The notes below the pieces were generated by a model. The model searched no databases. It had not been told where the DNA came from and saw only the letters and a program-made list of their open reading frames with translations. The translations under genes and the position numbers were made by a program. A stretch of 64,000 nt of DNA from an uncultured Methanolinea sp. GTDB lineage: Archaea > Halobacteriota > Methanomicrobia > Methanomicrobiales > Methanospirillaceae. The stretch's first letter is position 1. The number at the start of each line of letters is the position of its first letter. The stretch is taken from assembly GCA_964452625.1 (NCBI GenBank), contig CAYVMJ010000001.1, forward strand, positions 489,914 through 553,913, read 5' to 3'. Positions 5,836-58,252 of the stretch are shown in pieces.

Positions 5836-6408
5836 CTAGTCCTCAATTTTTCCTTCATATAGACTGTATTCTCGTTTAAAATATGTTGAAAGATTCATTA
5901 AGAGGTTTAGATATTCATTCGATAAATGATGTCTACAAATTGTATCATTTTGATTAATGATCCAACAAACTCCATTTTCCGTAACTATACCCAATGTAAA
6001 TATCGTTTCCCAATCAGTATCCTTATAGCGTCTGGCTGGTTGATATTTTGCCAGAGGGATCCTAATCCTTTCAAATGAGATTTTAGTATCAAATATTTCT
6101 TTTTTAACATTATCGTCTTTAATAATTCCCTGTTTCTTGATTTGTTCATCTATAGAGCGGACAATTTCATAAACCCCTAATACCCAGAGATAAGATAGTG
6201 TATGAAATTCTGACAATTCATAAATAAATTCGCGATCTGTAGAAAAATTTTCCATCATTTCTAGAATAGATAATATTCTATAACGTAATTGATGCTCTAT
6301 TAAACCCAATCCCAAAGATGTATTTTGCATCATGGGATTAAATTCAACTAATGTATGAGAGTGATCAATCCATAATTGAACAAATTCTTCAATTTCATCA
6401 CATTTCAT
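5836..6408 (-). CDS. Hypothetical protein (190 aa), AT-rich cargo gene
   Basis: Clean ORF lying between the nuclease and the STAND gene. No motif was recognised. Confidence 0.45.
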   Translation of the reverse strand: MKCDEIEEFVQLWIDHSHTLVEFNPMMQNTSLGLGLIEHQLRYRILSILEMMENFSTDREFIYELSEFHTLSYLWVLGVYEIVRSIDEQIKKQGIIKDDNVKKEIFDTKISFERIRIPLAKYQPARRYKDTDWETIFTLGIVTENGVCWIINQNDTICRHHLSNEYLNLLMNLSTYFKREYSLYEGKIED

Positions 6409-6437
6409 ATGTTCAACTCATATTTTCTAATTAAATT

Positions 6438-11672: not shown

Positions 11673-11819
11673 TGAAACCTACTCTTGTTCCGAAAATAAA
11701 AATAGTATCGCTTTTATTAAAACATAGGAAATGATGAAGGAAACTACAAAATTTAGTCCCTCTATAACCTGTTCTGAACCACTTATCTGATTTTAGGAAA
11801 ATAAAAAAAACGAAGAGTT

Positions 11820-12968
11820 CTATTTAAAAATTGAATTAAGTCCCAATTCCCTCTTCACCGCCTCCACAATTTCCCTGTAATCCGGACTTACCTTCGCTTC
11901 CTTCACTGATTCATCCACATCCATCGCGGCCTTCTTATTCAGGGCCATGGAACATTGGGAGCAATACTGCGAATAATGTGAATTTTTCATCCCGCACCGG
12001 GGACACTTTACCGGTTCGAGTGTCGTCTCTGGCTTCGCTTTCTCATCTGCAAGAATTCCTGCTTTTTCCAGGACCTTTCTCTCCACGTCAGCGCCGGAAA
12101 GATGAACATAGACCTCTGGCATTGCACTGTTCCGTTCCCACCCTGCGACCAGGCGGAGCTCCATCTCGTTCAGGCCCAGGCGCCCGCCAGTACTTCGGGC
12201 CAGGTCGGTGAGCCGGGCATGCCGGATAGCGTGGGGATGGACCGGCTTGGTGATGTGCAAGGCCTCGGCGATGTGGGTGAGCTTGTTCTCCACGGTCCGG
12301 AGGTCCAGGCGTCGCGTGGTCCCTGAGTACCTCCGGCTGGTCACGAAGAGCGGGGCGTTGTTGTCGCTTCGAAGCGGGTGCATGTTTATCCACATCTGGA
12401 GGTCCGGGACCGAACTGACCAGGCGCAGCCTTCGCATCCCGGTCTTTCCGTTCACGATGATCACGGCTCCATACTGGTCGAACTGCACGTGCCCGATGTT
12501 CAGCGAGAGGATTTCAGTTATCCGGGCCCCGGAGTCCCACAGGAGCATTAAGAGGGCCCGGTCGCGCGGCATCTCGCAGGCCTCGACCATGCGGGAGAGG
12601 TCCTCTCTGGTGATGAGCTGGTCTACGGGGAGCTGGCGGCGGGGCCGCTTGATGACGATATTTTCAAAAAGTTTCTTCTCTTTTTTCGGGAGGAGGAAGC
12701 GGTAGAACATCTTCAGCTCCAGGATATTGCCCTGGAGCGTAAACGGGCTCACGGTCTGGCGCCGATGGATTATGTAGTCCTCGATGGCGCTTTGCGTAAC
12801 GGTTTTGGCGTCCTGGAACTTATACCACTTCAGGAACGGGTATACACGCCACACCTTGGTCCTGACCGTATGAAGTCTGAGCTGGCGCAGTTCAAGGTGT
12901 CTGATATACCGTTCGAGATGGATCCTGTTCGCAGGATCGATCGTTGGCAGGGTGTCGAGATCGAACAT
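11820..12968 (-). CDS. Tyrosine recombinase/integrase (phage-integrase family) with a C-terminal Zn-ribbon
   Basis: The catalytic region carries R (LLWDSGARITEI), H-x-x-R (HPHAIRHARLTDL) and a downstream Y (EVYVHLSG). C-terminal CPRCG...CSQC is present. The gene abuts the tRNA fragment. Confidence 0.8.
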   Translation of the reverse strand: MFDLDTLPTIDPANRIHLERYIRHLELRQLRLHTVRTKVWRVYPFLKWYKFQDAKTVTQSAIEDYIIHRRQTVSPFTLQGNILELKMFYRFLLPKKEKKLFENIVIKRPRRQLPVDQLITREDLSRMVEACEMPRDRALLMLLWDSGARITEILSLNIGHVQFDQYGAVIIVNGKTGMRRLRLVSSVPDLQMWINMHPLRSDNNAPLFVTSRRYSGTTRRLDLRTVENKLTHIAEALHITKPVHPHAIRHARLTDLARSTGGRLGLNEMELRLVAGWERNSAMPEVYVHLSGADVERKVLEKAGILADEKAKPETTLEPVKCPRCGMKNSHYSQYCSQCSMALNKKAAMDVDESVKEAKVSPDYREIVEAVKRELGLNSIFK

Positions 12969-43667: not shown

Positions 43668-43952
43668 ATGGGCAGGATATCAATGCGATCCACCGTCTGT
43701 GCAAAAAAGAACCAGGTCTCCTGCGATCTTGCCGGGGAAGCGGTGATTCTCTCTCTTGATCAGGGGATGTATTACACGATGAACCCCGTCGGAGCGAGGA
43801 TTTGGAGCATGCTGCAGACATCCATGCCGGTACAGGAGATCCGGGATGTACTCGTGTCGGAATTCGAGATCGGAGCAGAGATATGTGAAGCGGATCTGCT
43901 GGCTGTCCTGGAAGACCTCGCGCGGGAAGGGCTGATAGAGGTTGAAAATTAG
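43668..43952 (+). CDS. Lasso-peptide B1 protein (PqqD-like RiPP recognition element)
   Basis: Sequence pattern and size (94 aa) fit PqqD. It overlaps the start of B2. Confidence 0.7.
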   Translation: MGRISMRSTVCAKKNQVSCDLAGEAVILSLDQGMYYTMNPVGARIWSMLQTSMPVQEIRDVLVSEFEIGAEICEADLLAVLEDLAREGLIEVEN

Positions 43953-44385
43953 CTCGTTTCATCGGTTTTTTCACTATGCCCGGGCAGGGCGTATTGTCCT
44001 CATCAGGGCATTTGCAATATCAGGACTGATCCGGCTGGGACTCTGGATTTTCCCGTTCAACACAGTACTCAAACTCGTTTCTTACATCAATCCCAAACCA
44101 CGCCGGGAGTTGGATCCTTCAATACCAGTCCCGCTGGTTATATGGGCCGTGAAGATTGTGAATTTTCATATCCCGCGGTCCACGTGCCTCGTGCAGGCGC
44201 TTGCATCGCAGGCAATGCTTGCTCTGAAAGGGGTTCCTTCCTGTCTCTGCATAGGGGTTTCCAGGGGGCAGGAGTCGTTCATCGATGCCCATGCCTGGCT
44301 CGAGGTCGATGGAAAGGCGGTCATAGGCGAACCGGAACCTGGCAGGTTTACAAGGCTCACCGGGATTGGCACGAGTCCGGAATGA
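43942..44385 (+). CDS. Lasso-peptide B2 leader peptidase (transglutaminase-like cysteine protease)
   Basis: Catalytic triad context C (RSTCLVQA), H (DAHAWLEVDG) and D. Size is 147 aa. Confidence 0.7.
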   Translation: MKISSFHRFFHYARAGRIVLIRAFAISGLIRLGLWIFPFNTVLKLVSYINPKPRRELDPSIPVPLVIWAVKIVNFHIPRSTCLVQALASQAMLALKGVPSCLCIGVSRGQESFIDAHAWLEVDGKAVIGEPEPGRFTRLTGIGTSPE

Positions 44386-44585
44386 ATCAGGGCCGGATTC
44401 TCGTCCAGAGGTGTAAATACTCATAAGGGCACATCATCCCCTGGACTCAGGGGAACAGAACCGGTGGAAAAGGAAGCGTAAGGATTCGAAGAAAAAACCG
44501 TGGAGAGTGCGGGAGAAATAAAGCGTATCGTTCTTATATCGAGTTATTCAATTGAAATCTGCAATTATTGCTGAAATGAAGTGCT

Positions 44586-46493
44586 ATGAGTGGAATAGGG
44601 GGTATACTGAACCTGGACGGATCAGAGGTTTCTTCCGGGTTGCTCGAACACATTGCCGGTTCAATTAAGAGCCGCGGTCCCGACGGTGTCAGGATATGGA
44701 AAGCGAAGAATATCGGGATGGTGCACAGCCATTTCTGGACGACTCCCGAGGATACGGGAGAAGAACAGCCCATCTCGATGGGTCATTACACCCTTGCGGC
44801 CGACGCAAGAATTGATAACCGGCAGGAACTCCTCCCCCTTTTAAAGGATTATATCAGCCGTGAAGTTCCCAGCGATGCCGAGATCATCCTTGCTGCATAT
44901 CAGAAATGGAATGAAGAGTGTCCGAAATACCTTATCGGAGATTTTGCATTCGCGATATGGGATGCAGAACGGGAATGCCTTTTTCTTGCCCGAGATCCGG
45001 TCGGAATACGACTCCTTCATTATTCGGTGGCAGGGAAGTCATTCGTCTTTGGTTCGGGCGTGGGATCCGTTGTCGCGACCATGAATACAGTCCCTGAGCC
45101 GAACATTCCTATGGTCGCAGACCTTCTGGCAGGCAGATACGATCGCTGGATCGATGAGACTGCCTTCAAGGACGTGCACCGGCTCCCTCCTGCATATTCC
45201 ATGACGGTTCTTGCATCGGGCATTCGCCTGACAAGGTACTGGACATTTGGGGCGCGGAAGGAGTCTCCTCTGGCAACAGAGGAGGAATATGTCGCCCGGT
45301 TCGGGGAATTATTCCGGGAAGCCGTCCGATGCCGGATGAGAGTGAATGACTCTCTTGCAATGACAGTGAGCGGCGGCATCGATTCATCTTCCATCGCCTG
45401 CATGGCACATCATCTCATCTCGTCCGGGGATGTCCGTACAACGGGAAGAATGTACTCTGCGGTATTCGAAGATACCCCCTCTGCCGACGAGAAGGAGTAT
45501 CTTGATGAATTGATTGCTGCCTGCCCTTGCTTCCCGGCCACCGAGATTCCATCCGATACCTTCTGGGGCCTTTGCGAATTTGCAGATGACGCCGGATATC
45601 CCCTTGACGATCCCGAGATCGAGGCGACCCGTGCAGTGATGCTGGCGCAGCTTTTCCACATCGCGCAGGATGGTCATAGGGTCGTTCTAAGCGGCCATGG
45701 TGGTGACCAGGTGATGTATACTGATGCATATGATATTCCTCCCAGCCTGAATGATATTGGCCTCACCAGGCTGCCCTCAGAATTCCGTCATTTCCTGCGG
45801 AATGGAATCCCCGTCACGAAGTTGCTGGAAGAAGCATACGTAATCCCCCTGATCCCGGTTGTCCTCAGGAAACGTCTCTCAAGACTTCTGAGAGATCCCA
45901 CGATAGGAGGCCTGTTGGCTCCCGGGTGTATCAGCATTCCGTCACCGGACCCCGCTGACGTACATCCGGGGTTTCGAACCGCAACCTCCACGAACATTTA
46001 CCTTGCTGTGACCGAAGGACTCAATTCCGTCTACCGGGTCACGCAGGACACGTATGCCTCGTATGCAGGTATCGACTGGCGATTTCCTTTCTATGATCGC
46101 CGCCTGATCGACTTTTTGCTCTCCGTTCCTCCTCTCTATATGTTCCGGGATGGATTCTCACGATGCCTCATCCGCGGGTACATGAAGGGACTTTTACCCG
46201 AAAAGATACGGCACCGGACAACGAAATGTCACCTTGGGGATATCCAGGAGCGTGGAATACAAGAGAAGGAGATATGCAGGGTCCAGGAATTGATCAACGA
46301 TTCCCGGGCTGTGGAGATGGGATTGGTCAACCCGGATGCACTCAAAAAAGCATGGGATTCCTGCTGGAACGGAGAGGAGTACCCTGCCCGTCCCCTCGTC
46401 AGGTTCCTCTGTGCCGAGGCGTGGCTCCGGTATTACGACAGGAAGTACGGGTTACCCCATAGAGCGGAAGCCGGGATGCCCGGAACGGACTGA
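44586..46493 (+). CDS. Lasso-peptide cyclase C (asparagine-synthetase homolog)
   Basis: N-terminal MSGIGGI (AsnB-type) and PP-loop SGGIDSS. Length is 635 aa. Confidence 0.75.
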   Translation: MSGIGGILNLDGSEVSSGLLEHIAGSIKSRGPDGVRIWKAKNIGMVHSHFWTTPEDTGEEQPISMGHYTLAADARIDNRQELLPLLKDYISREVPSDAEIILAAYQKWNEECPKYLIGDFAFAIWDAERECLFLARDPVGIRLLHYSVAGKSFVFGSGVGSVVATMNTVPEPNIPMVADLLAGRYDRWIDETAFKDVHRLPPAYSMTVLASGIRLTRYWTFGARKESPLATEEEYVARFGELFREAVRCRMRVNDSLAMTVSGGIDSSSIACMAHHLISSGDVRTTGRMYSAVFEDTPSADEKEYLDELIAACPCFPATEIPSDTFWGLCEFADDAGYPLDDPEIEATRAVMLAQLFHIAQDGHRVVLSGHGGDQVMYTDAYDIPPSLNDIGLTRLPSEFRHFLRNGIPVTKLLEEAYVIPLIPVVLRKRLSRLLRDPTIGGLLAPGCISIPSPDPADVHPGFRTATSTNIYLAVTEGLNSVYRVTQDTYASYAGIDWRFPFYDRRLIDFLLSVPPLYMFRDGFSRCLIRGYMKGLLPEKIRHRTTKCHLGDIQERGIQEKEICRVQELINDSRAVEMGLVNPDALKKAWDSCWNGEEYPARPLVRFLCAEAWLRYYDRKYGLPHRAEAGMPGTD

Positions 46494-46552
46494 GAATGGC
46501 GGATCTTTGTGAAATTGAAGGACAATATCTACGATCATTTCCAAAATAAAAA

Positions 46553-46601
46553 ACAAATCTCTTTATACAAAGAAAGTGAGGCTTGTACAGCCCTCGATAG
46601 G
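46553..46601 (+). promoter_or_regulatory. Conserved upstream element (TATA-like TTTATACAAA) of lasso precursor A1
   Basis: About 80% identical to 47056-47105, at the same distance (about 80 nt) from the ATG. Confidence 0.5.
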
Positions 46602-46633
46602 GGGCAGTAAAGTACTATACCAGGATCGATACA

Positions 46634-46765
46634 ATGAAGAAAGAATTGTATACAGCTCCAAAGCTTGAAAAAGTCGGAAATGTGAAGGATTTGACACGCG
46701 GCGGCACCGGTGTTTATCAGGATAATGGAGGAGCCGGTAGTTATTCACCTGTAAGACTCGACTGA
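46634..46765 (+). CDS. Lasso-peptide precursor A1 (43 aa)
   Basis: Hand-translated as MKKELYTAPKLEKVGNVKDLTR/GGTGVYQDNGGAGSYSPVRLD. Thr is at -2 of the leader, the core starts with Gly and Asp is at core position 8. An oligo-T terminator follows. Confidence 0.65.
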   Translation: MKKELYTAPKLEKVGNVKDLTRGGTGVYQDNGGAGSYSPVRLD

Positions 46766-47055
46766 TGGGCATTATCGGGTTCAGCGGTTTTCATTTATCT
46801 TTTTTTTCAAGAGCCTATTACTCATGAGACTGCAATATCCGGGATTCCTTTTCCATCGGGTGACCATACGCGTACATTTATGTCAGTGCATACCCAGGAT
46901 TCGAATAACCTGTTGATATTCTGCCCTTTTCAGGACCTTTCTCTGCCGTTTTAGGCGATGTTTTTTTTCTTGTAATACATCTGGAGAATTTACTCACATC
47001 AAAATATGACTGTAATGTCAAATGATTTTGAGATACTACATCAATGAAAATGAAT

Positions 47056-47105
47056 ACAAATCTCTTTATACAAAGATATTGAGGCTTGTACAACCCTTGA
47101 TATGG
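47056..47105 (+). promoter_or_regulatory. Conserved upstream element of lasso precursor A2
   Basis: Paralogous to 46553-46601. Confidence 0.5.
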
Positions 47106-47138
47106 GAATCATGTATTTATCCGGCAGGGATAGATGCC

Positions 47139-47264
47139 ATGAAGAAAGCAGTCTATGAACCTCCAAAACTCGAAAAAGTAGGAAACATGAAGGATTTGAT
47201 ACGTGGAAGTCTGGGAGATCTGCAGGATGCCGGGGGTGCCGATAGTTACAACCCCGAACCGTAA
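47139..47264 (+). CDS. Lasso-peptide precursor A2 (41 aa), with Ile instead of Thr at leader position -2
   Basis: Translated as MKKAVYEPPKLEKVGNMKDLIR/GSLGDLQDAGGADSYNPEP. The leader is paralogous to A1 and is preceded by the same conserved upstream element. Confidence 0.6.
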   Translation: MKKAVYEPPKLEKVGNMKDLIRGSLGDLQDAGGADSYNPEP

Positions 47265-47340: not shown

Positions 47341-48513
47341 GTGAATACCAACGAAGCAGGCTTTCGGATTCTCCCTGTGGATGCATCAGGTGTTGAGAGA
47401 TTCCACCATGCAGTCCCTTCCTCACATGACCCTGCTGTCATTGGTCTTGCACATGGTATTGCCTCAAGTCCGATCTGGTCTTTGATGCCGGGGGCTACCC
47501 TTTTTGTCAGACCGACGCCTCCACTTATCGCAGTGGTTGGACACTTCGATGATGCGTCGGAGGCACGCCTGGAGGCGCTCTCATTCCAGGCACAATTTGC
47601 CTTGCGGACTCTCCGGTACGTGGATTTTTCCCGGGCAGAGGAAGACTGCAGGATCCTCGCATCCCTCCTGAAAGAGCGATTCGGGGAAGAAAAATTGAAA
47701 CAATGCTATTTTTCCGCGATGCCGAGAGGCGGATACCTCATCCTGGGATTGCTGGCATATATCCTTGGTGTGCATCCGTCCCGGCTGGACTCTCCCGCAC
47801 CCCGGGATGCAACCCTTATCGTTCTCGATGATTGCGCCATCTCCGGCGCCCGCTTCCAGGACTTCCTGATGAGATCGGAGAACGAGAGGATCATCTTCGC
47901 ACCATTATACTCGCATCCGGAGTTACGGGAATCTATCGAAACGCGGGAACACCGCGTTGTTGCCTGCATCAGCGCCCATGACCTGGCAGATTATTCCGGC
48001 GAAACCAGGGGAGGAAAAGACGCGTACAGGGAGCTCTGGAGAACCCGGCATCCTGACAATCGGTACTGGATTGGCCTCCCTGAATACATCTGTTTTGCCT
48101 GGAACGAGCCCGACAGGCCGTTCTGGAACCATGTATCCGGAAAGACCGAATGCGGCTGGACACTCATCCCCCATGAATGCTGCCTCAAGAACGGTCCACC
48201 CCGCATCCCGGTATATGTCCAACCGGAGGCGAAGGGTCTAATCAGGCCTTCGGATCACGTGATATACCTGATGGACGGAGACTCGGTTGTAATCGGCGAT
48301 CTCGATTCGAACGCGAGTTACCATCTTGGTGGGGTCGGTGCAGGTATCTGGAATGAGATCATCGAATCCGGAGACCGGGAGGCTGCTATGAAAAAGATAC
48401 GGGAAAAATACGGGGCGGATGACAAAACTGTCCGGGAGAATGTTACAGCATTTCTTGAGGACCTGATCGGAAGAGGGATCCTTGAAGAGACCTGCATGGA
48501 TTCATCAGTATAG
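47341..48513 (+). CDS. Phosphoribosyltransferase-like nucleotide-binding domain fused to a C-terminal PqqD-like (RRE) domain
   Basis: PRTase-type motif ATLIVLDDCAISGARF. The C-terminal about 90 aa (HVIYLMDGDSVVIGDLDSNASYHLGGVGAGIWNEI...) are PqqD-like. A GTG start with an upstream AGGAAGG is proposed because the ATG-started ORF overlaps precursor A2. Confidence 0.5.
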   Translation: MNTNEAGFRILPVDASGVERFHHAVPSSHDPAVIGLAHGIASSPIWSLMPGATLFVRPTPPLIAVVGHFDDASEARLEALSFQAQFALRTLRYVDFSRAEEDCRILASLLKERFGEEKLKQCYFSAMPRGGYLILGLLAYILGVHPSRLDSPAPRDATLIVLDDCAISGARFQDFLMRSENERIIFAPLYSHPELRESIETREHRVVACISAHDLADYSGETRGGKDAYRELWRTRHPDNRYWIGLPEYICFAWNEPDRPFWNHVSGKTECGWTLIPHECCLKNGPPRIPVYVQPEAKGLIRPSDHVIYLMDGDSVVIGDLDSNASYHLGGVGAGIWNEIIESGDREAAMKKIREKYGADDKTVRENVTAFLEDLIGRGILEETCMDSSV

Positions 48514-48529
48514 AAAACCGGATCGTGAA

Positions 48530-49498
48530 ATGAGACTTCACCGGCTTTACGGACTGACCGTTGCAAGCGATTTTCCTTTCAAAAACAGGTTTCCCGGAGG
48601 GTCGGGAAGCCCCGATGTTACTTTTACGTGCAGGAAGAGGCCTCCAGTTCCGGATCATTGGCAGAATACAACGCCATTATTTGCGTCCGGAATGAAATCA
48701 GAACGTGGGGAGAGCATCCTCTCCATCTTCAGGACCGATGGATATCATGTTGCACATTATCCCGGGTTGGTTGATTTTTATATCTGGCCTGATCGAATCA
48801 CTGCACACCTGTGTGACACCTCGCATGACTATCTGGTTGAAATTTACCTCATTGGAGATATCTTCTCCCTCTGGCTTGAACTCCATGGAATTCCCGCAAT
48901 CCATGCATCATCAGTGGTGATCGATGGTCAGGCGATCGGCTTCCTCTCATCCAATAAAGGTGGGAAAAGCGCACTTGCCGCAGCGTTATTGAAGAAAGGA
49001 TATCCCCTCCTTACCGATGATATCCTCCCGATTGAGAAAAGGGATGGCATATATTTTGGCCGGCCCGGGTATCCCCAGATGCGGATGTGGCCGGATGAAG
49101 CCGGTTTTTTTCTTGGAGGCTATGAGGATCTCGATATTGTTCATCCCAGGTATTCCAAACGCAGAATACCGGTAGGGGGGAAGGGATTCGGATCATTTTA
49201 TAGCGATTCAATTCCGATTGGAGCACTCTATATCCCGGAACGGCAGGATCATTGCGAGAATATTGGAATTAAACCGATATCACAAAAAGACGCATTCATC
49301 GAGATGATTCGCCATTCATTCTCGGTCAGCATCGTCGAAGCCCTCGAGCTCCAGGTTCCCCGGATGCAGTTCTTTTCAGGTCTGGTTCAGAACGTTCCCG
49401 TACGACGGTTCATGTACCCTTCAGGATTTTCTCACCTCTCTGATGTTGCGGATACCCTGGTCGATGATATCAGGTCAATAGAACCAAAAATGCAATAA
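48530..49498 (+). CDS. HPr-kinase/phosphorylase C-domain-like P-loop protein (candidate RiPP/lasso-peptide kinase)
   Basis: GFLSSNKGGKSALAAALLKKGYPLLTDD matches the HprK P-loop/DD region. Confidence 0.6.
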   Translation: MRLHRLYGLTVASDFPFKNRFPGGSGSPDVTFTCRKRPPVPDHWQNTTPLFASGMKSERGESILSIFRTDGYHVAHYPGLVDFYIWPDRITAHLCDTSHDYLVEIYLIGDIFSLWLELHGIPAIHASSVVIDGQAIGFLSSNKGGKSALAAALLKKGYPLLTDDILPIEKRDGIYFGRPGYPQMRMWPDEAGFFLGGYEDLDIVHPRYSKRRIPVGGKGFGSFYSDSIPIGALYIPERQDHCENIGIKPISQKDAFIEMIRHSFSVSIVEALELQVPRMQFFSGLVQNVPVRRFMYPSGFSHLSDVADTLVDDIRSIEPKMQ

Positions 49499-49608: not shown

Positions 49609-51447
49609 ATGACAGAAGTACCGCCTCCACCAGCAGGAATACGTGATCTCGGCCAGAGGATACATACCCTGTTTGGTATCCGGCGGGCTGTCGCCATGGT
49701 CTGGGCAAGTGCACCGGGCTGGACCATTGCAGGCGGAATCCTGATCGTCCTCCAGGGGATCCTTCCGCTGGCCACACTCTACCTGTTGAAGCTCATCATT
49801 GATGCAGTCACAACAGGTACTACAACGGGTCACGTGGAGGGATCATTTGGGACCATACTCCCCTTGCTTGTCGTTTTTTGCGTCCTCCTCCTGATTACAA
49901 TTTTTACCCGATCACTCTCGGGTTATGTGAGCGAAGCCCAGTCTCGGTATACTACAGATCATGCACAGGAGATCATCCATGCCAAGTCCATAGAGGTCGA
50001 CCTTGAATATTACGAGAATCCTTCCTATTATGACGCGTTTTACCGGGCCCAGGCAGAAGCACCGGCAAGGCCTACCAGAATCGTTAATGGACTGGTCCAG
50101 GTTGGCCAGAGCACGATTACCCTGTGCGCAACGCTCATCATACTCATATCTTTCAGCTGGACTCTTGCAGCCCTGCTGCTCGTTGCCATAGTGCCGGTTG
50201 CTTATATCCGCTGGAAATACGCGGATATCGAATACCAGTGGAGGAAAAGCAGGACTTCGAAGGAGAGGGAGTCGTTTTATTTTCACTGGCTTCTCACCGG
50301 AGAGGGCCATGCAAAAGAGATCCGGCTCTTCAACCTGGGAGAGAGATTCGCACAACGCTATCGGCAACTCCGGGCTCAAGTGAGGCAGGAACACCTGTCG
50401 ATATCGAGGAAAAAGGTGATTGCGGATATTGCCGCACAATCGGTAGCAGTCCTCGCGCTTTTTGTTTCGTTTCTTTTTATCGCGTACAAAACCATCGAGG
50501 GAAGTATTTCCCTCGGCGACCTCGTTTTGTATTTTGGCCTTATCCAGCAGAGCCAGTCGTATATGAACACGCTGCTTTCAGGCCTCGCAGGCCTCTACGA
50601 AGATACGATATTCCTGACAAACATATATGAGTTCCTTGATCTCCACCCGAAGGTGAAAGAACCCGAGCATCCGCTTCAGATCCCTGTTCCTGTGACGAGA
50701 GGCATCTCGTTCGAACATGTCGATTTCCGGTATCCCGGATCGGAATCCCTCACACTTACAGATATCAACATCACGATACCAGCGGGCAAGACTGTCGCCC
50801 TTGTTGGAGAGAATGGTTCCGGGAAGACCACCCTGATAAAACTCCTCTGCAGGCTCTATGACCCTGAATCAGGGAGGATCACCCTTGATGGCACCGATAT
50901 CCGCATGTTCAGGACTCTCGACCTGCGAAAAGAGATCAGCATCATTTTCCAGGACTATGCCAGGTATAACCTGACAGCACGGGAAAATATCGCAATCGGG
51001 AGCAGGGAACAATTGGTGGATGATGAGGATGTAACAAGAGCGGCGGAGGCATCCGGAGCAGACTCCGTGATCAATCAACTGGACCAGAGTTACGAGACAA
51101 TTCTTGGGAAAATGTTCGAGAAAGGGGCGGAACTCTCGATCGGGGAATGGCAAAAAATTGCACTGGCAAGGGCATTCATCCGGGATGCACAACTCATTGT
51201 CATGGATGAACCGACGAGTTCCCTCGACCCTCTTGCCGAGGCCGAGGTCCTTAAACAGTTAAAGAAGATCTCCGAAGGTCGCACTACAGTCATCATCAGC
51301 CACAGGCTCTCGTCGGTCAAGGCAGCGGATATTATTTATTATCTGGATGGAGGGAGAGTAGTTGAAATGGGGACTCATGATGAACTTATTAATGTAAAAG
51401 GATCTTATGCACATTTGTATGAGACCCAGGCCCGGCAATACAAATAA
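49609..51447 (+). CDS. ABC exporter, fused permease plus ATPase (McjD-like RiPP exporter)
   Basis: Six N-terminal TM helices. Walker A is GENGSGKTT, the signature is LSIGEWQ and Walker B is LIVMDEPTS. Confidence 0.8.
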   Translation: MTEVPPPPAGIRDLGQRIHTLFGIRRAVAMVWASAPGWTIAGGILIVLQGILPLATLYLLKLIIDAVTTGTTTGHVEGSFGTILPLLVVFCVLLLITIFTRSLSGYVSEAQSRYTTDHAQEIIHAKSIEVDLEYYENPSYYDAFYRAQAEAPARPTRIVNGLVQVGQSTITLCATLIILISFSWTLAALLLVAIVPVAYIRWKYADIEYQWRKSRTSKERESFYFHWLLTGEGHAKEIRLFNLGERFAQRYRQLRAQVRQEHLSISRKKVIADIAAQSVAVLALFVSFLFIAYKTIEGSISLGDLVLYFGLIQQSQSYMNTLLSGLAGLYEDTIFLTNIYEFLDLHPKVKEPEHPLQIPVPVTRGISFEHVDFRYPGSESLTLTDINITIPAGKTVALVGENGSGKTTLIKLLCRLYDPESGRITLDGTDIRMFRTLDLRKEISIIFQDYARYNLTARENIAIGSREQLVDDEDVTRAAEASGADSVINQLDQSYETILGKMFEKGAELSIGEWQKIALARAFIRDAQLIVMDEPTSSLDPLAEAEVLKQLKKISEGRTTVIISHRLSSVKAADIIYYLDGGRVVEMGTHDELINVKGSYAHLYETQARQYK

Positions 51448-51507: not shown

Positions 51508-51570
51508 GGAGAATCAGAATTGATTTTCACTATATAAAAGACAGGTACGCAAAGGATGAAAAAGAACATT
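51508..51570 (+). repeat. Conserved 63-nt element upstream of Cys-rich precursor 1, containing the mini-ORF MKKNIVSI at 51556-51582
   Basis: About 90% identical to 52083-52145 (GGAGAATCAGAATTGATTTTSACTATA..AAAGACAG.TACGCAAAGGATGAAAAARAACATT). Confidence 0.5.
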
Positions 51571-51712
51571 GTTTCAATCTAAAAAATTTTTAAAAAATAA
51601 ACCATTTTTTTAATCAATCAGTAAACTTTTCGTTTTTCCAATAAATTCTATAACTCCAATTTGAAAAGAAAAACAGGTAGGTATAAATACTCGGATAGAA
51701 ATCAACTAACAT

Positions 51713-51928
51713 ATGGTTCTGAGGGTATATGAAAAACCGGAATTGATAGACCTTAACGAACAACCAGGATATGGTTCCTGCGAAAATGGGAGTGGAGATC
51801 CCGGGTGTAATAACGGCAATGCGGCGGGGGAGGTCTGCCTAGCAGGAACAGGGGGAGCAAGAGTTACATACTGTGTGGGTGGATTGGGTGATGCCACTGG
51901 TTGTATCGCGGGAGAAGGTGGCGATTAA
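51713..51928 (+). CDS. Cys/Gly-rich RiPP precursor-like peptide 1 (71 aa)
   Basis: Translated as MVLRVYEKPELIDLNEQPGYGSCENGSGDPGCNNGNAAG followed by EVCLAGTGGARVTYCVGGLGDATGCIAGEGGD. The first 39 aa are identical to the paralog at 52303. Confidence 0.6.
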   Translation: MVLRVYEKPELIDLNEQPGYGSCENGSGDPGCNNGNAAGEVCLAGTGGARVTYCVGGLGDATGCIAGEGGD

Positions 51929-52082
51929 TAATTATGTTCATTTTTCATCCTCTTTAGAAAACCTCAATGAAATAAAATCGTAGGTGTCCTTGGATAATAC
52001 AGACAACCATTTTCGATAATTTCCATCTTCCGGATGAGAAAGACTCTTAATATAAAATCGCAGGCCGTACTTTCATTTCAGT

Positions 52083-52145
52083 GGAGAATCAGAATTGATT
52101 TTGACTATACCAAAGACAGTTACGCAAAGGATGAAAAAAAACATT
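52083..52145 (+). repeat. Second copy of the conserved 63-nt element, with the mini-ORF MKKNIFQ at 52131-52154
   Basis: See 51508-51570. Confidence 0.5.
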
Positions 52146-52302
52146 TTCCAGTAAGTATTGTCTAATTAAAGTCTGGAATACCATTTTTGCTGATCATGCA
52201 GAGGGTTACTATTCTCTATAGTTATTCAACTGATTCAAATACTCCCTGTTGATGGAAAAATATAGGAAATCTTAAATACCACGATCGAGGTCAATGATAG
52301 TT

Positions 52303-52527
52303 ATGGTTCTGAGGGTATATGAAAAACCGGAATTGATAGACCTTAACGAACAACCGGGATATGGTTCCTGTGAAAATGGAAGTGGGGATCCCGGGTGTAA
52401 TAACGGGAATGCAGCTGGGACGGTTTGCTTCGATGGGGCGGGTGGCATTCCTACAGGGACCAACTGTCTCGCAGGAGGTGCGGCAAATTATCACTGCGAT
52501 TCAGGCTCTTCCGGGTATGATTTTTAG
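52303..52527 (+). CDS. Cys/Gly-rich RiPP precursor-like peptide 2 (74 aa)
   Basis: Same 39-aa leader as peptide 1, then a divergent core TVCFDGAGGIPTGTNCLAGGAANYHCDSGSSGYDF. The leader-coding DNA is about 95% identical between the two genes. Confidence 0.6.
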   Translation: MVLRVYEKPELIDLNEQPGYGSCENGSGDPGCNNGNAAGTVCFDGAGGIPTGTNCLAGGAANYHCDSGSSGYDF

Positions 52528-52718
52528 AGATAACATTTTTTATGTTAAGACACATTCATTATGTCTCTCTAATTGAATGAATATCTCACATTAAAGCCAA
52601 TGAGTCATCAATTCTATCATCATTGAAGTCCATTTTTTATCTATGCATTAAAATATGGCTGTATCATTTAATCAATGAAAATGAATTTTCTGTACTATTG
52701 AATATCTCCAGTCCTCTT

Positions 52719-53834
52719 TCAGCAGCGCCCTGCAATCCTCCGCGACTCCGGGAAGAGACCCGATTGGAAAGCTGATCGGCAAAACCAGTAATCCGAGAAG
52801 AGATCTCCGGACGTATAATAGTTCTGGGCGATACAGGACCCAAGGCAGCGCCACTTCATCACACACTCCTGGCAGATCCCCTGCATCTCCCGCGGCAATT
52901 TTTCCCGTATCTCTTTCAGTACTGGAGTTTCTTTCCAGATTTTTTCAAGGGGATCCACCCTGGCATCCCCGAATACCATCGACGGAGTCGATTCCCCTAT
53001 CCCGCAGAGGGCATACTTACCACTGGAAAGAACACCAAGGATGTTGAAGATCCCACATACACCGCAGTCTACTCCGGCATTCCGGAAGAGCGAACTCATT
53101 GGACGGAACGCCATCGGGAGGCTCGTGAAGATGCGAATTTTGGCATTCTTCTGGAAGTCTTTCTCCATCCAGTTCCCCAGATCGATGAGTTCCGGGACCG
53201 AGAGTGTCTCGTTCCGTGTATGCATCACTTTTCCGCGTTCGGTGGGCTGAACGAAATTGAACTTGATGGATTTTGCTCCAAGGTCTTTTGCGAGTGCTGC
53301 AACATCGGGGATATCGTCTTTATTGGCCCGCATCACCGTCATGATAATCTGAAGGGGGATCTTTGCTTCTGACACCAGTCTCGCTCCTTCACAGGCTTTT
53401 TCGAAAGACCCCTGTACACCCCTTATGTGCTCGTGGTTTTCAGCCAGCCCGTCAATGGAGACTGATACAAAGGGAGCAACGCATTCGCTCACGATTTTTG
53501 CGATATCAGGAGTAATGCATAACCCGTTGGTCTCAATTTTCAATCCGATATGCTGGTCGCGTATAAACTGAAGAATCCCGGTGATTTCGGGGTGAATAAG
53601 TGGTTCTCCCCCCGTCAGTTTCACAGAAGACAGCCCTAAATGTTTTGCCTGATCGATAATATGATGAAACAGGGGAATATCGAGTGCTCTGGTGCTGACC
53701 CCCTGTTTCTGGTATGTCGGGGAAATCCAGCAGTGACGGCAGGCAAGATTACAATCACCGCACAGATAGAAATACAGGGTATTAAGCTGAGGGATTGCCT
53801 TTATTTTCTGCTCTGATGGCTCCGGGTTCATCAT
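52719..53834 (-). CDS. Radical SAM/SPASM-domain peptide-modifying enzyme (ScmE/ScmF-like)
   Basis: CGDCNLACRHC radical-SAM cluster motif. The C-terminal SPASM Cys cluster is CGVCG...CQECVMKWRCLGSC. Confidence 0.75.
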   Translation of the reverse strand: MMNPEPSEQKIKAIPQLNTLYFYLCGDCNLACRHCWISPTYQKQGVSTRALDIPLFHHIIDQAKHLGLSSVKLTGGEPLIHPEITGILQFIRDQHIGLKIETNGLCITPDIAKIVSECVAPFVSVSIDGLAENHEHIRGVQGSFEKACEGARLVSEAKIPLQIIMTVMRANKDDIPDVAALAKDLGAKSIKFNFVQPTERGKVMHTRNETLSVPELIDLGNWMEKDFQKNAKIRIFTSLPMAFRPMSSLFRNAGVDCGVCGIFNILGVLSSGKYALCGIGESTPSMVFGDARVDPLEKIWKETPVLKEIREKLPREMQGICQECVMKWRCLGSCIAQNYYTSGDLFSDYWFCRSAFQSGLFPESRRIAGRC

Positions 53835-54967
53835 TTCGAGCGCTCCAGGCTATCAGACCCGTTTTTATACAAATAGATTATCTCGCCTCCTGATTCGAGA
53901 TATCTCCTCAGGCAGTTTTCAGGGTTTGGTGCGAATACCGTTCCGGTCAGGTTATACCCGACACCCGGGCAATTCCCTGTACAATAGGTTTGGTACAGGC
54001 AGTCCCTGCAATAGGGGAAATCCGATAAGGGTATCTCCCTTCGGTTTCGCAGACGCTCCAGCTCGGGGTGATGCTGCCATACTTCTTTTAGAGAATCGTC
54101 ATTGATATGTCCGAGCATGATATGAGCGAGGTGGCTGCAGGGGACGATCACTCCATCCGCCCTTACGGTGATTTTACTCCACAGGCACCCGCATCCGACA
54201 AGATAGCCGGCCCATCCCGGCTCATTATTTTTCCGTGCCTTTTCCATCTTCGCATACATTTTTGCATCCGCAAAAGGACCGGCAGCAGCGGTGATACGCC
54301 CCGGATATTTTTGATCTAACTGAAGAAGACTTCTCATTGCATGGACTTTCTCATCAATAGTCAGCTGCACTTCATCCGAATGCTTCATGGAGAGTCCCAT
54401 GAACGAGACATAGTTCGTACTGAATCCCGGGATCCCTATCTCTTCAAGGAGGAAGCGGGCGATTTCTTCGAGTGTGTCATAATTTTCCTTGTGAACGGTA
54501 ACACGGACCGTCACAGGGACTCCTTCCTCCTGGAGGATTCTTAATCCGGCGACCGCTTTTTCAAAAACACCTTCACCCCTGAAAGAATCGTGGACGGCAG
54601 GAGTTGCACCGTCGATGGACACCTGCACATAATTACAACGGCGGGTTGCAGCAATCATCCTGGCAAGGTCCCGTGTTATTCTTGTTCCATTTGTCAGAAT
54701 GGAAAATCTCATCCTGTTCCGGACTATCCCATCGATCAGTTCCAGAATATCATCACGAAGAAGGGCTTCACCCCCGGTAAGGGTGGCATTCATCACTCCC
54801 AAATCACCCAATTCCTTGAAGAATGTAAGCCATTCAGAAGTCGGTAAATCCCTGGTGACATCGCCCGGGCTGGTGAAGTGGGAGCAATAGCGGCAGCGGA
54901 GATTACAGGCATTGGTGATCTCGATATCGATCTCCCGGGGAGTCTTCATAAGGGCCAGGGGTTTCAT
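53831..54967 (-). CDS. Radical SAM/SPASM-domain peptide-modifying enzyme (second paralog)
   Basis: CNLRCRYC motif. C-terminal SPASM Cys cluster (CGCLW...CSHL...CRDC...CTGNC). It overlaps the downstream rSAM gene by 4 nt. Confidence 0.75.
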   Translation of the reverse strand: MKPLALMKTPREIDIEITNACNLRCRYCSHFTSPGDVTRDLPTSEWLTFFKELGDLGVMNATLTGGEALLRDDILELIDGIVRNRMRFSILTNGTRITRDLARMIAATRRCNYVQVSIDGATPAVHDSFRGEGVFEKAVAGLRILQEEGVPVTVRVTVHKENYDTLEEIARFLLEEIGIPGFSTNYVSFMGLSMKHSDEVQLTIDEKVHAMRSLLQLDQKYPGRITAAAGPFADAKMYAKMEKARKNNEPGWAGYLVGCGCLWSKITVRADGVIVPCSHLAHIMLGHINDDSLKEVWQHHPELERLRNRREIPLSDFPYCRDCLYQTYCTGNCPGVGYNLTGTVFAPNPENCLRRYLESGGEIIYLYKNGSDSLERSK

Positions 54968-54974
54968 CTGTCAC

Positions 54975-55250
54975 CTATCCTTCTTTAAATGAAATGAAGT
55001 TATTTTGTATCAGCCGATCGAGAAAATCGCTGATATCCTTGATGATCTCAGTGTAATCCTTATCAAAAGTGTGAGCAATATACAGAGAAATTTTTTCAAG
55101 GGAGCTAGTCCCGTCCATGTGTTTCCATACCATCACACCTGTAGGATTGATACCGAATACTCTTCCTGTATCCGGGTCGAATAAGAGGGCCCAGTCATCG
55201 AATTCCTCCCTGATAACAATATTGGGATTTTTTAATGGAATTTTTTCCAT
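54975..55250 (-). CDS. PqqD-family protein (RRE) of the rSAM cassette
   Basis: WALLFDPDTGRVFGINPTGVMVWKHMDG is PqqD-like. Start is placed at the internal MEKIPLK. The ORF extends to 55343. Confidence 0.65.
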   Translation of the reverse strand: MEKIPLKNPNIVIREEFDDWALLFDPDTGRVFGINPTGVMVWKHMDGTSSLEKISLYIAHTFDKDYTEIIKDISDFLDRLIQNNFISFKEG

Positions 55251-55379
55251 GGAAGAAGAACCTGTCATTACTAATGAATGCGATGAAGAATACATAAAAA
55301 TTATGAATAATAAGGAATTATTTCCCTTTGATATTTTCATCATAAGATATCAATACACGACAATCCAGGGTATGCTCGT

Positions 55380-56036
55380 ATGTATGAAGGGAGTATTGTA
55401 ATCCGCTATACCGGTTGGAGCATGTATCCTACATTTTTCCCCCATGACCTGTTGACCTGCAGGGCCACTTCGGTTCATTCCCTTCACCGTGGTGATATTG
55501 TTGTGGTCAGATCGAAGAAATCAATTCCCGAACACATGACTGTCCACCGGGTTTGTGAAATTAAAGAGGGAAAGATCATTACCAGAGGAGACAATACCGA
55601 TCGACCCGATGAAGATCCTGTCACACCTGATAATTTTGTGGGAGTCGTGGTAAGGGCAAAAAGAAGAGAAAAGGAGTTCCCTGTGCGTTCAGGCGGCACA
55701 GGATACGCCAGGCATTATCTCCTGATTCTGAAAAAGGCATTATTCAAGTCAACGGGACCTGTAATATTGCAATTGGAAAAATTGGGGGATGTACGGCAAC
55801 CCATGAAGCACCTGATCCCACGCATTGTCCCGGGAAAAATCATTGGTATCCGGACGCCGGGAGGAATCGATCTCCAACTCTTTTTCCATAATATTCTCAT
55901 AGGATGGTTGTTGTTCAATGGTCCATCCTGGTATATACGGCCAATATTTCGGCCTTTTGTGGATTCACACTCTCTGCCGGAGAGTTATCGATCAGTCTTT
56001 CCTGGTTTCAATCCGGATGGAGGGGAATTCATCTGA
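55380..56036 (+). CDS. S26/S24-type signal-peptidase-like serine protease (candidate leader peptidase)
   Basis: GWSMYPT matches the SGSMxPT nucleophile motif of type I signal peptidases, and GDIVVV follows. Confidence 0.55.
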   Translation: MYEGSIVIRYTGWSMYPTFFPHDLLTCRATSVHSLHRGDIVVVRSKKSIPEHMTVHRVCEIKEGKIITRGDNTDRPDEDPVTPDNFVGVVVRAKRREKEFPVRSGGTGYARHYLLILKKALFKSTGPVILQLEKLGDVRQPMKHLIPRIVPGKIIGIRTPGGIDLQLFFHNILIGWLLFNGPSWYIRPIFRPFVDSHSLPESYRSVFPGFNPDGGEFI

Positions 56037-56073
56037 AGAGTTCTGTTTCAGTATCGATTCCCTCCCCGGAAGC

Positions 56074-57253
56074 ATTGCGGAAGTACTGCAAAAATTATTT
56101 TCCTTCCGAAAAAAATGGTTTCCAGATACTGGATGCACCTGATGCATTTCTCTCGTGGTTGCTGGGAATATTACATCGAGTCCCTGTACCTGCACCATCA
56201 CTCACCGATGAAGAATGGAATCAGGTCATGAACTTGCTGGGACCTCATGGCATAATACCCTACCTCTCGTACCTGCTGAGCGCGATGCCTCCTTTCTGCC
56301 ATCCGCCCAGCCATATCAGGAGGGTGTTTGCCGTCCAGTATCTCAAGAGCAGTTTTCATTCGGATCAGGCCATGAAACAGGCTGAGAATGTCTGTATGGC
56401 CTGTGAGAAGAACGGAATACATGTGCTGGTCCTGAAGAGTCCCGCGATTGGCCATGCATACTACCCCGAACCGGGTCTTCGAACGGGGAGCGACATCGAT
56501 ATCCTCGTGGCTCCGGAACAGTATGAACAATGCAGGGGGGTATTGTGCAATCTTGGCTATGATCTCAGATATGATACCTATCGGATCATGCCCCGGTTCT
56601 ATCATCACGCATGCTATTATCCCCGGAAAAAAAACCAGCAGGTGATCGAACTGCACTGGAGGCCTTTGTTCCTTCCGGGACCTGGTGACAGTGTCGACCC
56701 CGTTGAACTGATTGCCAGGTCGGAAAGAATCCAGACCCCCCATGGACATATTCAAAGACTCGACCCTGCAGATGCGCTCCTGTACTTGTCAATCCACATG
56801 AGCCTTTTTCATGAGCCCGTGCTCAGAATCTCGTGGGTATGCGATATTGAACGCATCTGTGAGTATATTACATCCCATGCTCTCTGGCCAAGGGTGAAAG
56901 AGCGGAGTGAAATATGGCAGGGAAGAAGTGCGGTTGAGAGGGCATTAGGTATTGCACAGCAATGGACAGGGTTGACGCTCCCGGATGAGTATGATCTCTC
57001 CTCATGGCCAGGGGCTGGGGCTGATGATGAGTATGCACGCACCCACATGCAGGAAAGACGTGCCGGGAAGGAGCTTCTCCTTCACCAGATTATTGCCCGG
57101 ATGCCCACCTTTTCCTTAAAGGTACGGGCCATGTATCACTGGGCCTTCAGGCCTGACCTGATACACGATGGTTTTCCCTCGATGAAATGGTGGGAATATC
57201 CTATAAGATATGCCCAGATGTTTCACAATAATTATCAACAAATCCGTCGATAA
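56074..57253 (+). CDS. Nucleotidyltransferase-family protein (NTP_transf_5-like). Start is uncertain.
   Basis: GIHVLVLKSPAIGHAYYPEPGLRTGSDIDILV matches the uncharacterised nucleotidyltransferase family often found in RiPP clusters. The frame is open from 55904 and overlaps the peptidase. A TTG at about 56074 or the ATG at 56225 are candidate starts. Confidence 0.5.
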
Positions 57254-57280
57254 AGTGGAAGTAAATATCTTCAAGAATCT

Positions 57281-58252
57281 TTGGATGTTTCACCGCTCAA
57301 AGATATGCCACCCAAATTTCTGTTACACTCAAATGCGCAGTCTGCTGGAAAAATGGTAATGACCGAAAAGACACCGATTTCATCTGTTTACTCATTATCT
57401 CTTTCAAATGGGCATTCCTGGGATATACATGCAGATATAAATCTCGAAAAGTGGCTGTTGAATTTTGCGACAATCCTTGGCCTGTCACAAACACTACCCA
57501 GAGATGGTGTGAGTGATTTTTACATTACACTTGAGGAAAGTGTCGAAGAAAATCTTTCAATTGGAACCTGGCAGGAACTTCCAAACAGGTATGTCAGGAT
57601 ATTCCTCTCCAATAAGAACCGGGACATCGTCTGTATCCCGAACAGGGAGTTCCTCACATCACGTCTCGATGAAACTGTATTAATGCTGTTTGTGATGCAG
57701 GCAATATACGCATCAGAGATATCAAGCGGGGGTCTTCCGCTTCATGCAGCGATGGTGCACTGGAATGAATGCGGGATACTCCTTGCAGGACAGGGAGGTA
57801 TTGGGAAATCAACCTGTGCCATGAGGCTTCCCCTCCCCTGGCAGGCAATATCTGATGACACGTGCCTCGCGGTTTATTCGGGCGAAAATACCTTTTCCAT
57901 GCATCCTATGCCCACCTGGAGTGTCTTTTTTGATTATCAGGACTGGGAAGCATCCTGGAAGGTGGAAAAATCATTCCCGATACAATTGATTTGTTTTCTT
58001 GAACGCGGTGCCTCAGATGAGATTATCGCCCTCGGGAGCGGGGAAGCAGCGGCATGCCTGTATCAATCTGCACTACAGGTCTGGCGGGGAACACACTCTA
58101 CACCCAGCGCCCCGGACCTGCATCAGCAATGGGTGAAAAGAATATTTCAAAACTCATGTTCACTCTCTCACATGATACCCTCAGCAAGACTCAAATTCAC
58201 AAAAGAGGGGCGTTTCTGGGAGAAAATTGAAACTTTTCTGGGTATAACCTAG
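57281..58252 (+). CDS. Second HPr-kinase C-domain-like P-loop protein
   Basis: GILLAGQGGIGKSTCAMRLPLPWQAISDD matches the HprK P-loop/DD region. Confidence 0.6.
   Translation: MDVSPLKDMPPKFLLHSNAQSAGKMVMTEKTPISSVYSLSLSNGHSWDIHADINLEKWLLNFATILGLSQTLPRDGVSDFYITLEESVEENLSIGTWQELPNRYVRIFLSNKNRDIVCIPNREFLTSRLDETVLMLFVMQAIYASEISSGGLPLHAAMVHWNECGILLAGQGGIGKSTCAMRLPLPWQAISDDTCLAVYSGENTFSMHPMPTWSVFFDYQDWEASWKVEKSFPIQLICFLERGASDEIIALGSGEAAACLYQSALQVWRGTHSTPSAPDLHQQWVKRIFQNSCSLSHMIPSARLKFTKEGRFWEKIETFLGIT

Follow-up and report, generated by a model that had tools for sequence, protein, structure and literature searches.

The 64,000-nucleotide stretch of DNA analysed here (the window), from an uncultured Methanolinea sp., very probably carries a functional-looking class II, split-B lasso peptide gene cluster of the paeninodin-like, i.e. 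phosphorylated, type in a methanogen of the Methanoregulaceae. Besides the leader-processing genes B1 and B2, the cyclase gene C and two tandem precursor genes, A1 and A2, three further genes belong to this cluster, namely a fusion of a phosphoribosyltransferase (PRTase) fold with a recognition element (RRE) of the kind found in pathways for ribosomally synthesised peptides that are modified after translation (RiPPs), a homologue of lasso precursor kinases and an MsbA-like exporter. The PRTase-RRE/kinase pair is a new element of the cluster and apparently undescribed in the searchable literature; our search found no lasso peptide or RRE linked with a phosphoribosyltransferase, subscription journals lying largely outside its reach. 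The initial annotation of this DNA had recognised the five-gene cassette from B1 to A2, with B2 overlapping B1. All five open reading frames (ORFs) were recovered on the + strand in the ORF listing and are matched by the family models, so that the cassette stands; as a description of the whole cluster it falls short, since the PRTase-RRE, kinase, exporter and probably a nucleotidyltransferase gene follow. The genes are listed below (aa, amino acids; nt, nucleotides).

B1, 43668-43952, + strand: 94 aa, discrete PqqD-like RRE
B2, 43942-44385, + strand: 147 aa, TTG start, transglutaminase-like leader peptidase; 11-nt overlap with B1
C, 44586-46493, + strand: 635 aa, asparagine-synthetase-like lasso cyclase
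A1 precursor, 46634-46765, + strand: 43 aa
A2 precursor, 47139-47264, + strand: 41 aa, inside an 80-aa ORF at 47022-47264
PRTase-fold and RRE fusion, 47341-48513, + strand: 390 aa, GTG start by homology
Kinase, 48530-49498, + strand: 322 aa, HPr-kinase-like homologue of lasso precursor kinases
D, 49609-51447, + strand: 612 aa, MsbA-like ABC exporter (Pfam ABC_tran 7.8e-33, ABC_membrane 3.2e-11)
N, 55904-57253, + strand: PF14907 nucleotidyltransferase (NTP_transf_5 1.6e-42), homology beginning near 56033

The lasso biosynthetic core

The three core enzymes are matched by models of lasso families. B1 matches Pfam PqqD (2.3e-17) and NCBIfam lasso_PqqD_Bac (2.3e-20), and phmmer aligned it with PDB entry 9x90_B, a 'lasso peptide biosynthesis PqqD family chaperone' (7.3e-12), and with TbiB1 (1.4e-9). 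B2, which alone had no sequence match in the PDB, is recognised by Transglut_core3 (2.6e-18) and by lasso_biosyn_B2 (2.9e-24; 85.9 bits against a cut-off of 33), its Cys82 and His117 (within AHAW) being unchanged in 51 of 51 aligned homologues. C combines Pfam Asn_synthase (7.7e-34) with GATase_7 and GATase_6, keeps the ATP-pyrophosphatase motif VSGGIDSSS (SGGxDS) and has as its top NCBIfam match the lasso isopeptide cyclase model lass_lactam_cya (5.1e-119); among its 2743 homologues, those that are named are called 'lasso peptide isopeptide bond-forming cyclase'.

A1 is composed of the leader MKKELYTAPKLEKVGNVKDLTR and the core GGTGVYQDNGGAGSYSPVRLD, and A2 of the leader MKKAVYEPPKLEKVGNMKDLIR and the core GSLGDLQDAGGADSYNPEP. 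The hand translations of the initial annotation were correct, and the residues in them, Thr(-2) in A1, Ile(-2) in A2, and Gly1 and Asp8 in both cores, are present in the sequence. The ORF lister and public gene callers give A2 as 80 aa from 47022; we place its start at 47139, which gives leader and core as the initial annotation had written them, because of the homology to A1 and of a duplicated upstream element described below. Checking the leader context, another of its proposals, revealed that both leaders carry the YxxPxL motif from -17 to -12, with Tyr at -17, Pro at -14 and Leu at -12, the spacing reported for B1 recognition (PMC10368454), and A1 matches NCBIfam lasso_leader_L3 (4.9e-6; 26.3 bits, cut-off 19). 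By analogy, Ile(-2) of A2 is no defect, since Ile(-2) has been experimentally validated in BsfA, the precursor of the kinase-associated bsf lasso system, and Ile or Val(-2) is reported to recur among phosphorylated lasso precursors (PMC10368454). For the leader-cleaved products with a loss of 18 Da, the computed monoisotopic masses are 2050.934 Da (A1) and 1843.786 Da (A2).

Comparison with homologous clusters, likewise proposed at the outset, showed that similarly built small ORFs occupy the interval from C to the following gene in all related clusters that could be read. Two are present in each of L171, L090 and L085 (our handles for related loci; cyclase 89%, 67% and 56% identical, respectively), and matching ORFs occur in a locus of a Methanothrix metagenome-assembled genome (MAG; L175) and in about 45 more distant metagenome loci. 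They are more than chance ORFs, because the same leader, Gly1 and Asp8 recur at the equivalent position. L171 has Thr(-2) in both of its precursors, including the orthologue of A2. When nine archaeal precursors were aligned with BsfA, Pro(-14), Gly1 and Asp8 were invariant and the leaders conserved, the cores being variable.

Two scores weigh against the assignment: the A2 leader reaches 17 bits with lasso_leader_L3, slightly under its cut-off of 19, and C obtains 398.7 bits against the cut-off of 525 of the clade-specific cyanobacterial lass_lactam_cya. At the level of sequence, leader, core, B1, B2 and C of a split-B lasso system are nevertheless all found, and the product would be expected to adopt the threaded [1]rotaxane topology.

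The PRTase-RRE fusion and its kinase partner

The gene following A2 was called as a 428-aa ORF from 47227; homology gives the 390-aa protein from 47341. It has the core fold of PRTases joined to a second lasso-type leader-binding domain that shares only 25% identity with B1. Across 47 diverse members of the family the motifs PRGG, VVDDCAxSGxR and CFAWNEPD are invariant or nearly so, as is LIVLDDCAISGAR. The PRPP (phosphoribosyl pyrophosphate) loop of type I PRTases consists of four hydrophobic and two acidic residues followed by a Ser/Thr-Gly phosphate loop; judging from the family motifs, VVDDCAxSGxR may correspond to this loop and PRGG to the pyrophosphate loop. Clustered at 50% identity, the family numbers 418 clusters (E no worse than 1e-30). 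Those members that have a name at all are labelled just 'PqqD family protein' or 'hypothetical', and they belong to Methanothrix, Desulfobacteraceae, Anaerolineales, Egibacteraceae and Thermoanaerobaculia.

The gene neighbourhood of the family, drawn from 80 metagenome loci and from genome loci, ties it both to a kinase and to lasso biosynthesis. Where enough downstream sequence is available (68 loci), a kinase gene lies directly downstream of the fusion in 49, and 7 others carry it at another place in the locus; the cyclase gene ends at most 1.5 kb upstream in 26 of 35 loci, and a lasso-type precursor, almost always a neighbour of the family, usually immediately precedes the fusion gene. The kinase of the window is homologous to the characterised lasso kinase BsfK (29% identity, E 3e-15). 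Kinases encoded beside a PRTase-RRE are 40-56% identical to it, against 22-34% for those of lasso loci lacking the fusion, and judging from these identities the PRTase-RRE-associated kinases are a co-evolving subfamily.

Two observations extend the picture of these genes. Protein P0336, from a MAG labelled 'Candidatus Helarchaeota' (Asgard), is homologous to the lasso-type kinase at 50% identity, which hints that the kinase-bearing module may reach further into archaea. Bacterial loci of Acidobacteriota and Thermoanaerobaculia (L005, L033, L088, L147, L149, L157) contain a compact cyclase, precursor and PRTase-RRE triad, after which come giant SdrD_B/PKD surface proteins and subtilases; B2, kinase and B1 either lie 6 kb away (L088) or were not seen within 8 kb. 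From L005 and L033, which have no B1/B2 within 8 kb and subtilases nearby, it could be thought that the PRTase-RRE replaces B1 and B2; this was not adopted, since L088, of the same group, does have B2, kinase and PqqD genes, 6 kb downstream and on the far side of a giant surface protein, and since tblastn is weak for a divergent 147-aa protein.

A conserved Ser/Thr in the peptide tail

A hydroxyl-bearing residue shortly after the ring Asp correlates with the module. Counted from that Asp, Ser or Thr occupies position +5 or +6 in 36 of the 48 PRTase-RRE-associated cores and in 9 of the 38 other lasso cores (Fisher p = 3e-6), the control cores having been hand-curated from regular-expression hits and the statistic being indicative only. 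In the associated cores the residue is often the Ser of a Gly-Ser pair, and the one after it is bulky or charged; a C-terminal Ser occurs in 2/48 of them and in 9/38 of the others. Both window cores have Ser14 (in GAGSY and GADSY), six residues past the ring Asp and before a bulky Tyr/Phe, and the Methanothrix precursor also has Gly13-Ser14.

On this correlation, Ser14 would most likely be the phosphorylation site. The C-terminal Ser is the acceptor of the paeninodin lasso kinase. BsfK instead phosphorylates Ser3 of BsfA (PMC10368454). A1 and A2 end in Asp and Pro, respectively, and their third residue is Thr in A1, Leu in A2 and variable in relatives. Along with the curation of the control cores, two points weigh against the assignment of Ser14: neither known acceptor position is conserved here, so that it is the correlation that points to this residue, and kinase and PRTase-RRE nearly always co-occur, so that the Ser/Thr signal is shared by the two enzymes and not assignable to either of them singly.

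What the fusion protein may do

Its motifs suggest that the fusion probably adds or processes a second group on the precursor. It is tempting to speculate that it is a tailoring enzyme of a new kind, guided by the leader, which together with the kinase installs a phosphoribosyl-type group on the conserved Ser/Thr five to six residues past the ring; we put this forward tentatively, as a possible but rather unlikely outcome. By analogy with the phosphoglycosylation of pseudomycoidin, a possible route would be attack of the phosphoserine on PRPP to give a phosphodiester-linked ribose-5-phosphate. The cores themselves speak against it: type I PRTases usually employ a nitrogen nucleophile and no such nucleophile is conserved in these cores, hence the PRTase domain could be a non-catalytic ligand-binding or scaffolding module.

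In the main rival proposal the PRTase-RRE is a mere adaptor whose RRE holds the precursor to the kinase, a service that B1 performs for BsfK, its PRTase-like domain being a dead scaffold or an allosteric sensor of nucleotide or PRPP in the manner of PyrR/PurR-type proteins, and the product a plain phospho-lasso peptide. We consider this a serious contender, though its chances are below even: the retention of PRGG, VVDDCAxSGxR and the CFAWNEPD hood motif over 47 diverse sequences is the pattern expected of an active site, and a discrete B1 is already available to serve the kinase. An improbable arrangement is that PRTase-RRE and kinase form a separate pathway diverting one precursor, e.g. A2 with its Ile(-2), to a linear phosphorylated product similar to the linear polyphosphorylated peptides (LPPs). 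The low mutual identity of the two RREs and the unlike residues at -2 would agree with it, and LPP clusters share the logic of kinase, RRE and exporter and adjoin lasso clusters (PMC13381572). Against such a diversion, the closest relative, L171, has Thr(-2) in both precursors, and many loci have a single precursor between cyclase and PRTase-RRE that retains Gly1 and Asp8, for which reason we consider that the module acts on lasso precursors.

If phosphoribosyl transfer is true, it would be a post-translational modification so far not known from RiPPs, and it would mark out a lasso sub-family whose members occur in methanogens, Acidobacteriota, Chloroflexota and other phyla.

Tandem duplication and the upstream element

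A1 and A2 arose by a tandem duplication of about 505 bp (repeat spacing 503-505 nt) that also includes a 54-nt element upstream of each coding sequence:

Upstream element of A1, 46550-46603, + strand: TATA-like TTTATACAAAGA, then near-palindrome GGCTTGTACAGCC
Upstream element of A2, 47053-47106, + strand: second copy, 89% identity

The two copies of the element are 89% identical, as compared with 73% for the coding repeat. Their near-palindromes are centred around TGTACA, GGCTTGTACAGCC at 46579-46593 and GGCTTGTACAACC at 47082-47096, and lie about 10 nt past the TATA-like box; L090 aligns with the ATACAA-AGA of the element. We read the element as a probable archaeal promoter or operator kept under selection, and the near-palindrome may be an operator or a hairpin in the 5' untranslated region. 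Scanning for sigma-70 promoters gave 8 sites where 9.4 were expected, a bacterial model that is uninformative for an archaeon, as was the terminator scan, and Rfam gave no match anywhere in the window.

Chromosomal setting and origin

The initial annotation had spoken of an archaeal cassette, and the neighbouring genes bear this out: an archaeosortase-A-associated AglB (TIGR04154, 4.5e-210) is encoded upstream of the cluster and SepCysS and an archaeal Dph6 downstream, and the NurA of the window shares a 90%-identity cluster with proteins whose names come from Methanoregulaceae and Methanolinea MAGs. The synteny from aglB to dph6 is kept in relatives with cyclase identities of 56-89%, always with one or two precursors. 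L085 shares the gene order aglB, B1, B2, C, A(A), and L090 joins the far end of the cluster to dph6; the cluster has thus been passed down at a single chromosomal site through considerable divergence. The exporter is syntenic in both (65% identity in L085, 82% in L090).

The nucleotidyltransferase N lies 4.5 kb beyond the exporter, on the far side of a set of SynChlorMet genes, and is 68% identical to the product of L090 7025-8245, a gene situated directly after the lasso ABC gene. Judging from this arrangement, N would probably close the lasso cluster, from which the inserted SynChlorMet genes have separated it, although it may instead belong to the neighbouring cluster. In L085 (14845-16403) an M50-like peptidase and a methyltransferase follow the lasso exporter in place of the nucleotidyltransferase.

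Among the matches listed, the closest cyclases beyond the methanogen group are bacterial (38-41% identity; Chloroflexota/Anaerolineae and Thermoanaerobaculia), so that an ancient transfer of the cluster from bacteria is plausible. That it persists as a decaying or silent bacterial relic yielding no product in this archaeon is highly improbable: the bacterial affinity of these cyclases and a G+C content of 0.48-0.55 in the cluster versus 0.55-0.59 in its flanks would be in keeping with such a fate, but all genes are intact and retain their catalytic residues, gene order and chromosomal site are the same in relatives down to 56% cyclase identity, the leaders are conserved while the cores vary and the promoter-like element is conserved, which are signs of continued purifying selection.

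A proposed pathway

Taking the cluster as a working phospho-lasso system, the following sequence of events can be envisaged. A1 and A2 would each be transcribed from their own copy of the duplicated promoter-like element, and the RRE domains would bind the leaders through Tyr-17 together with Pro-14 and Leu-12. The HPr-kinase-like enzyme would then phosphorylate a Ser/Thr, most likely Ser14, on the linear precursor; in the bsf system phosphorylation also takes place on the precursor and is sped up by B1 (PMC10368454). The PRTase-RRE, which has a leader-binding domain to itself and a PRPP-type nucleotide/phosphosugar pocket that looks intact, may recruit the kinase or work with it. B1 would present the leader to the cysteine protease B2 for cleavage after Arg(-1), and C would adenylate Asp8 and close the 8-residue Gly1-Asp8 isopeptide ring around the tail. 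The MsbA-like pump would export the product, and the PF14907 nucleotidyltransferase may build further on the phosphate in the manner of pseudomycoidin. Being complete and conserved, with short precursors and predicted masses, the cluster offers a concrete target for expression.

The adjacent RiPP cluster and other features of the window

Directly after the lasso exporter, a second RiPP cluster of SynChlorMet/LPP-like type occupies 51508-58252 with a G+C content of 0.41-0.50. It includes two tandem precursor-like ORFs:

First SynChlorMet precursor-like ORF: 51713-51928
Second SynChlorMet precursor-like ORF: 52294-52527, probably starting at 52303

Their products, MVLRVYEKPELIDLNEQPGYGSCENGSGDPGCNNGNAAG..., have a YEKPEL leader motif that is lasso-like, and the repeats they share are 88-92% identical, upstream region included. 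The cluster resembles those for LPPs in its SpI-like peptidase, discrete RRE (ScmD), HprK-like ScmC, nucleoside triphosphate (NTP) transferase and YEKPEL-leader precursors, and differs from them in the two radical SAM/SPASM enzymes of its SynChlorMet cassette. In Bacilli, LPP clusters co-localise with paeninodin-like lasso clusters (PMC13381572). The SynChlorMet cassette of the window is separate from the lasso cluster. BLASTP found no significant direct similarity between the lasso-type kinase of the window and the neighbouring ScmC (E 0.46); both match Hpr_kinase_C weakly, and some relatives of the kinase carry the Pfam ScmC domain. In L085 (1-4398) SynChlorMet-type genes lie on the opposite side of aglB, among them one that fuses radical SAM with ScmC and one that fuses an S24/S26 peptidase with GNAT. 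Judging from the loci compared, the lasso and SynChlorMet clusters travel together in a fluid arrangement. Within 15 kb this locus encodes three RRE proteins as well as four precursors whose leaders are of the YxxPxL type, and it thereby provides a natural archaeal test case for leader discrimination, a question recently studied in Bacilli.

Two regions away from these clusters stand out by composition. A low-G+C island (0.33-0.34) at 6001-12968 is probably an integrated element; it contains a 1744-aa ORF (6438-11672, - strand) with no Pfam match, adjoined by a phage-integrase-family gene (11820-12968, - strand). A 994-aa ORF at 1035-4019 (- strand), also with no Pfam match, lies in a stretch with a G+C content of 0.70, far higher than the roughly 0.55 of the window, and is overlapped by several long ORFs in other frames.

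Comparison with known systems

To our knowledge no lasso peptide appears to have been isolated from an archaeon, and our literature search on archaeal lasso peptides returned nothing relevant, with subscription journals largely outside the search. The archaeal lasso cluster as such is already known as a prediction, what is new being the PRTase-RRE/kinase module with its Ser/Thr signature. In this respect the initial annotation, which had called lasso peptides very rare in archaea, overstated the novelty: Euryarchaeota are named as an under-explored source of lasso clusters by RODEO, as cited in PMC7533575, and are included in the predicted lasso set of LassoPred (PMC12214591), and among the matches listed here lasso loci also occurred in Methanobacterium (L024 and L038, with precursors) and in Methanothrix MAGs. 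The window cluster belongs to the same cluster class and phylum-level group as those predicted euryarchaeal clusters (PMC7533575, PMC12214591), none of which is characterised. The 47 solved lasso structures all come from three bacterial phyla (PMC12214591).

[quoted passage not shown] Unlike them, it belongs to an archaeon, its precursors lack the C-terminal Ser acceptor, a PRTase-RRE gene stands between precursors and kinase, and the nucleotidyltransferase gene is cut off from the rest by another RiPP cluster. The bsf cluster of Bradymonas sediminis is similar in its homologous kinase, its Gly1-Asp8 ring and its YxxPxL at -17 to -12, and the end of the BsfA leader, IIR|G, resembles the LIR|G of A2, with Ile(-2) in both (PMC10368454). 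It differs in that BsfK acts on Ser3, a position not conserved here, and in lacking a PRTase-RRE gene; the product of bsf has itself never been obtained (PMC10368454).

As for the fusion protein, identity to type I phosphoribosyltransferases (OPRT, APRT, HGXPRT, UPRT) amounts to 9-18%, and the CFAWNEPD hood subdomain is unique to the fusion. Unlike those enzymes, it presumably takes a peptide as its substrate, because a lasso RRE forms part of it and its gene stands in RiPP clusters; if its PRTase domain is catalytic, this would amount to a peptide modification chemistry that is new.

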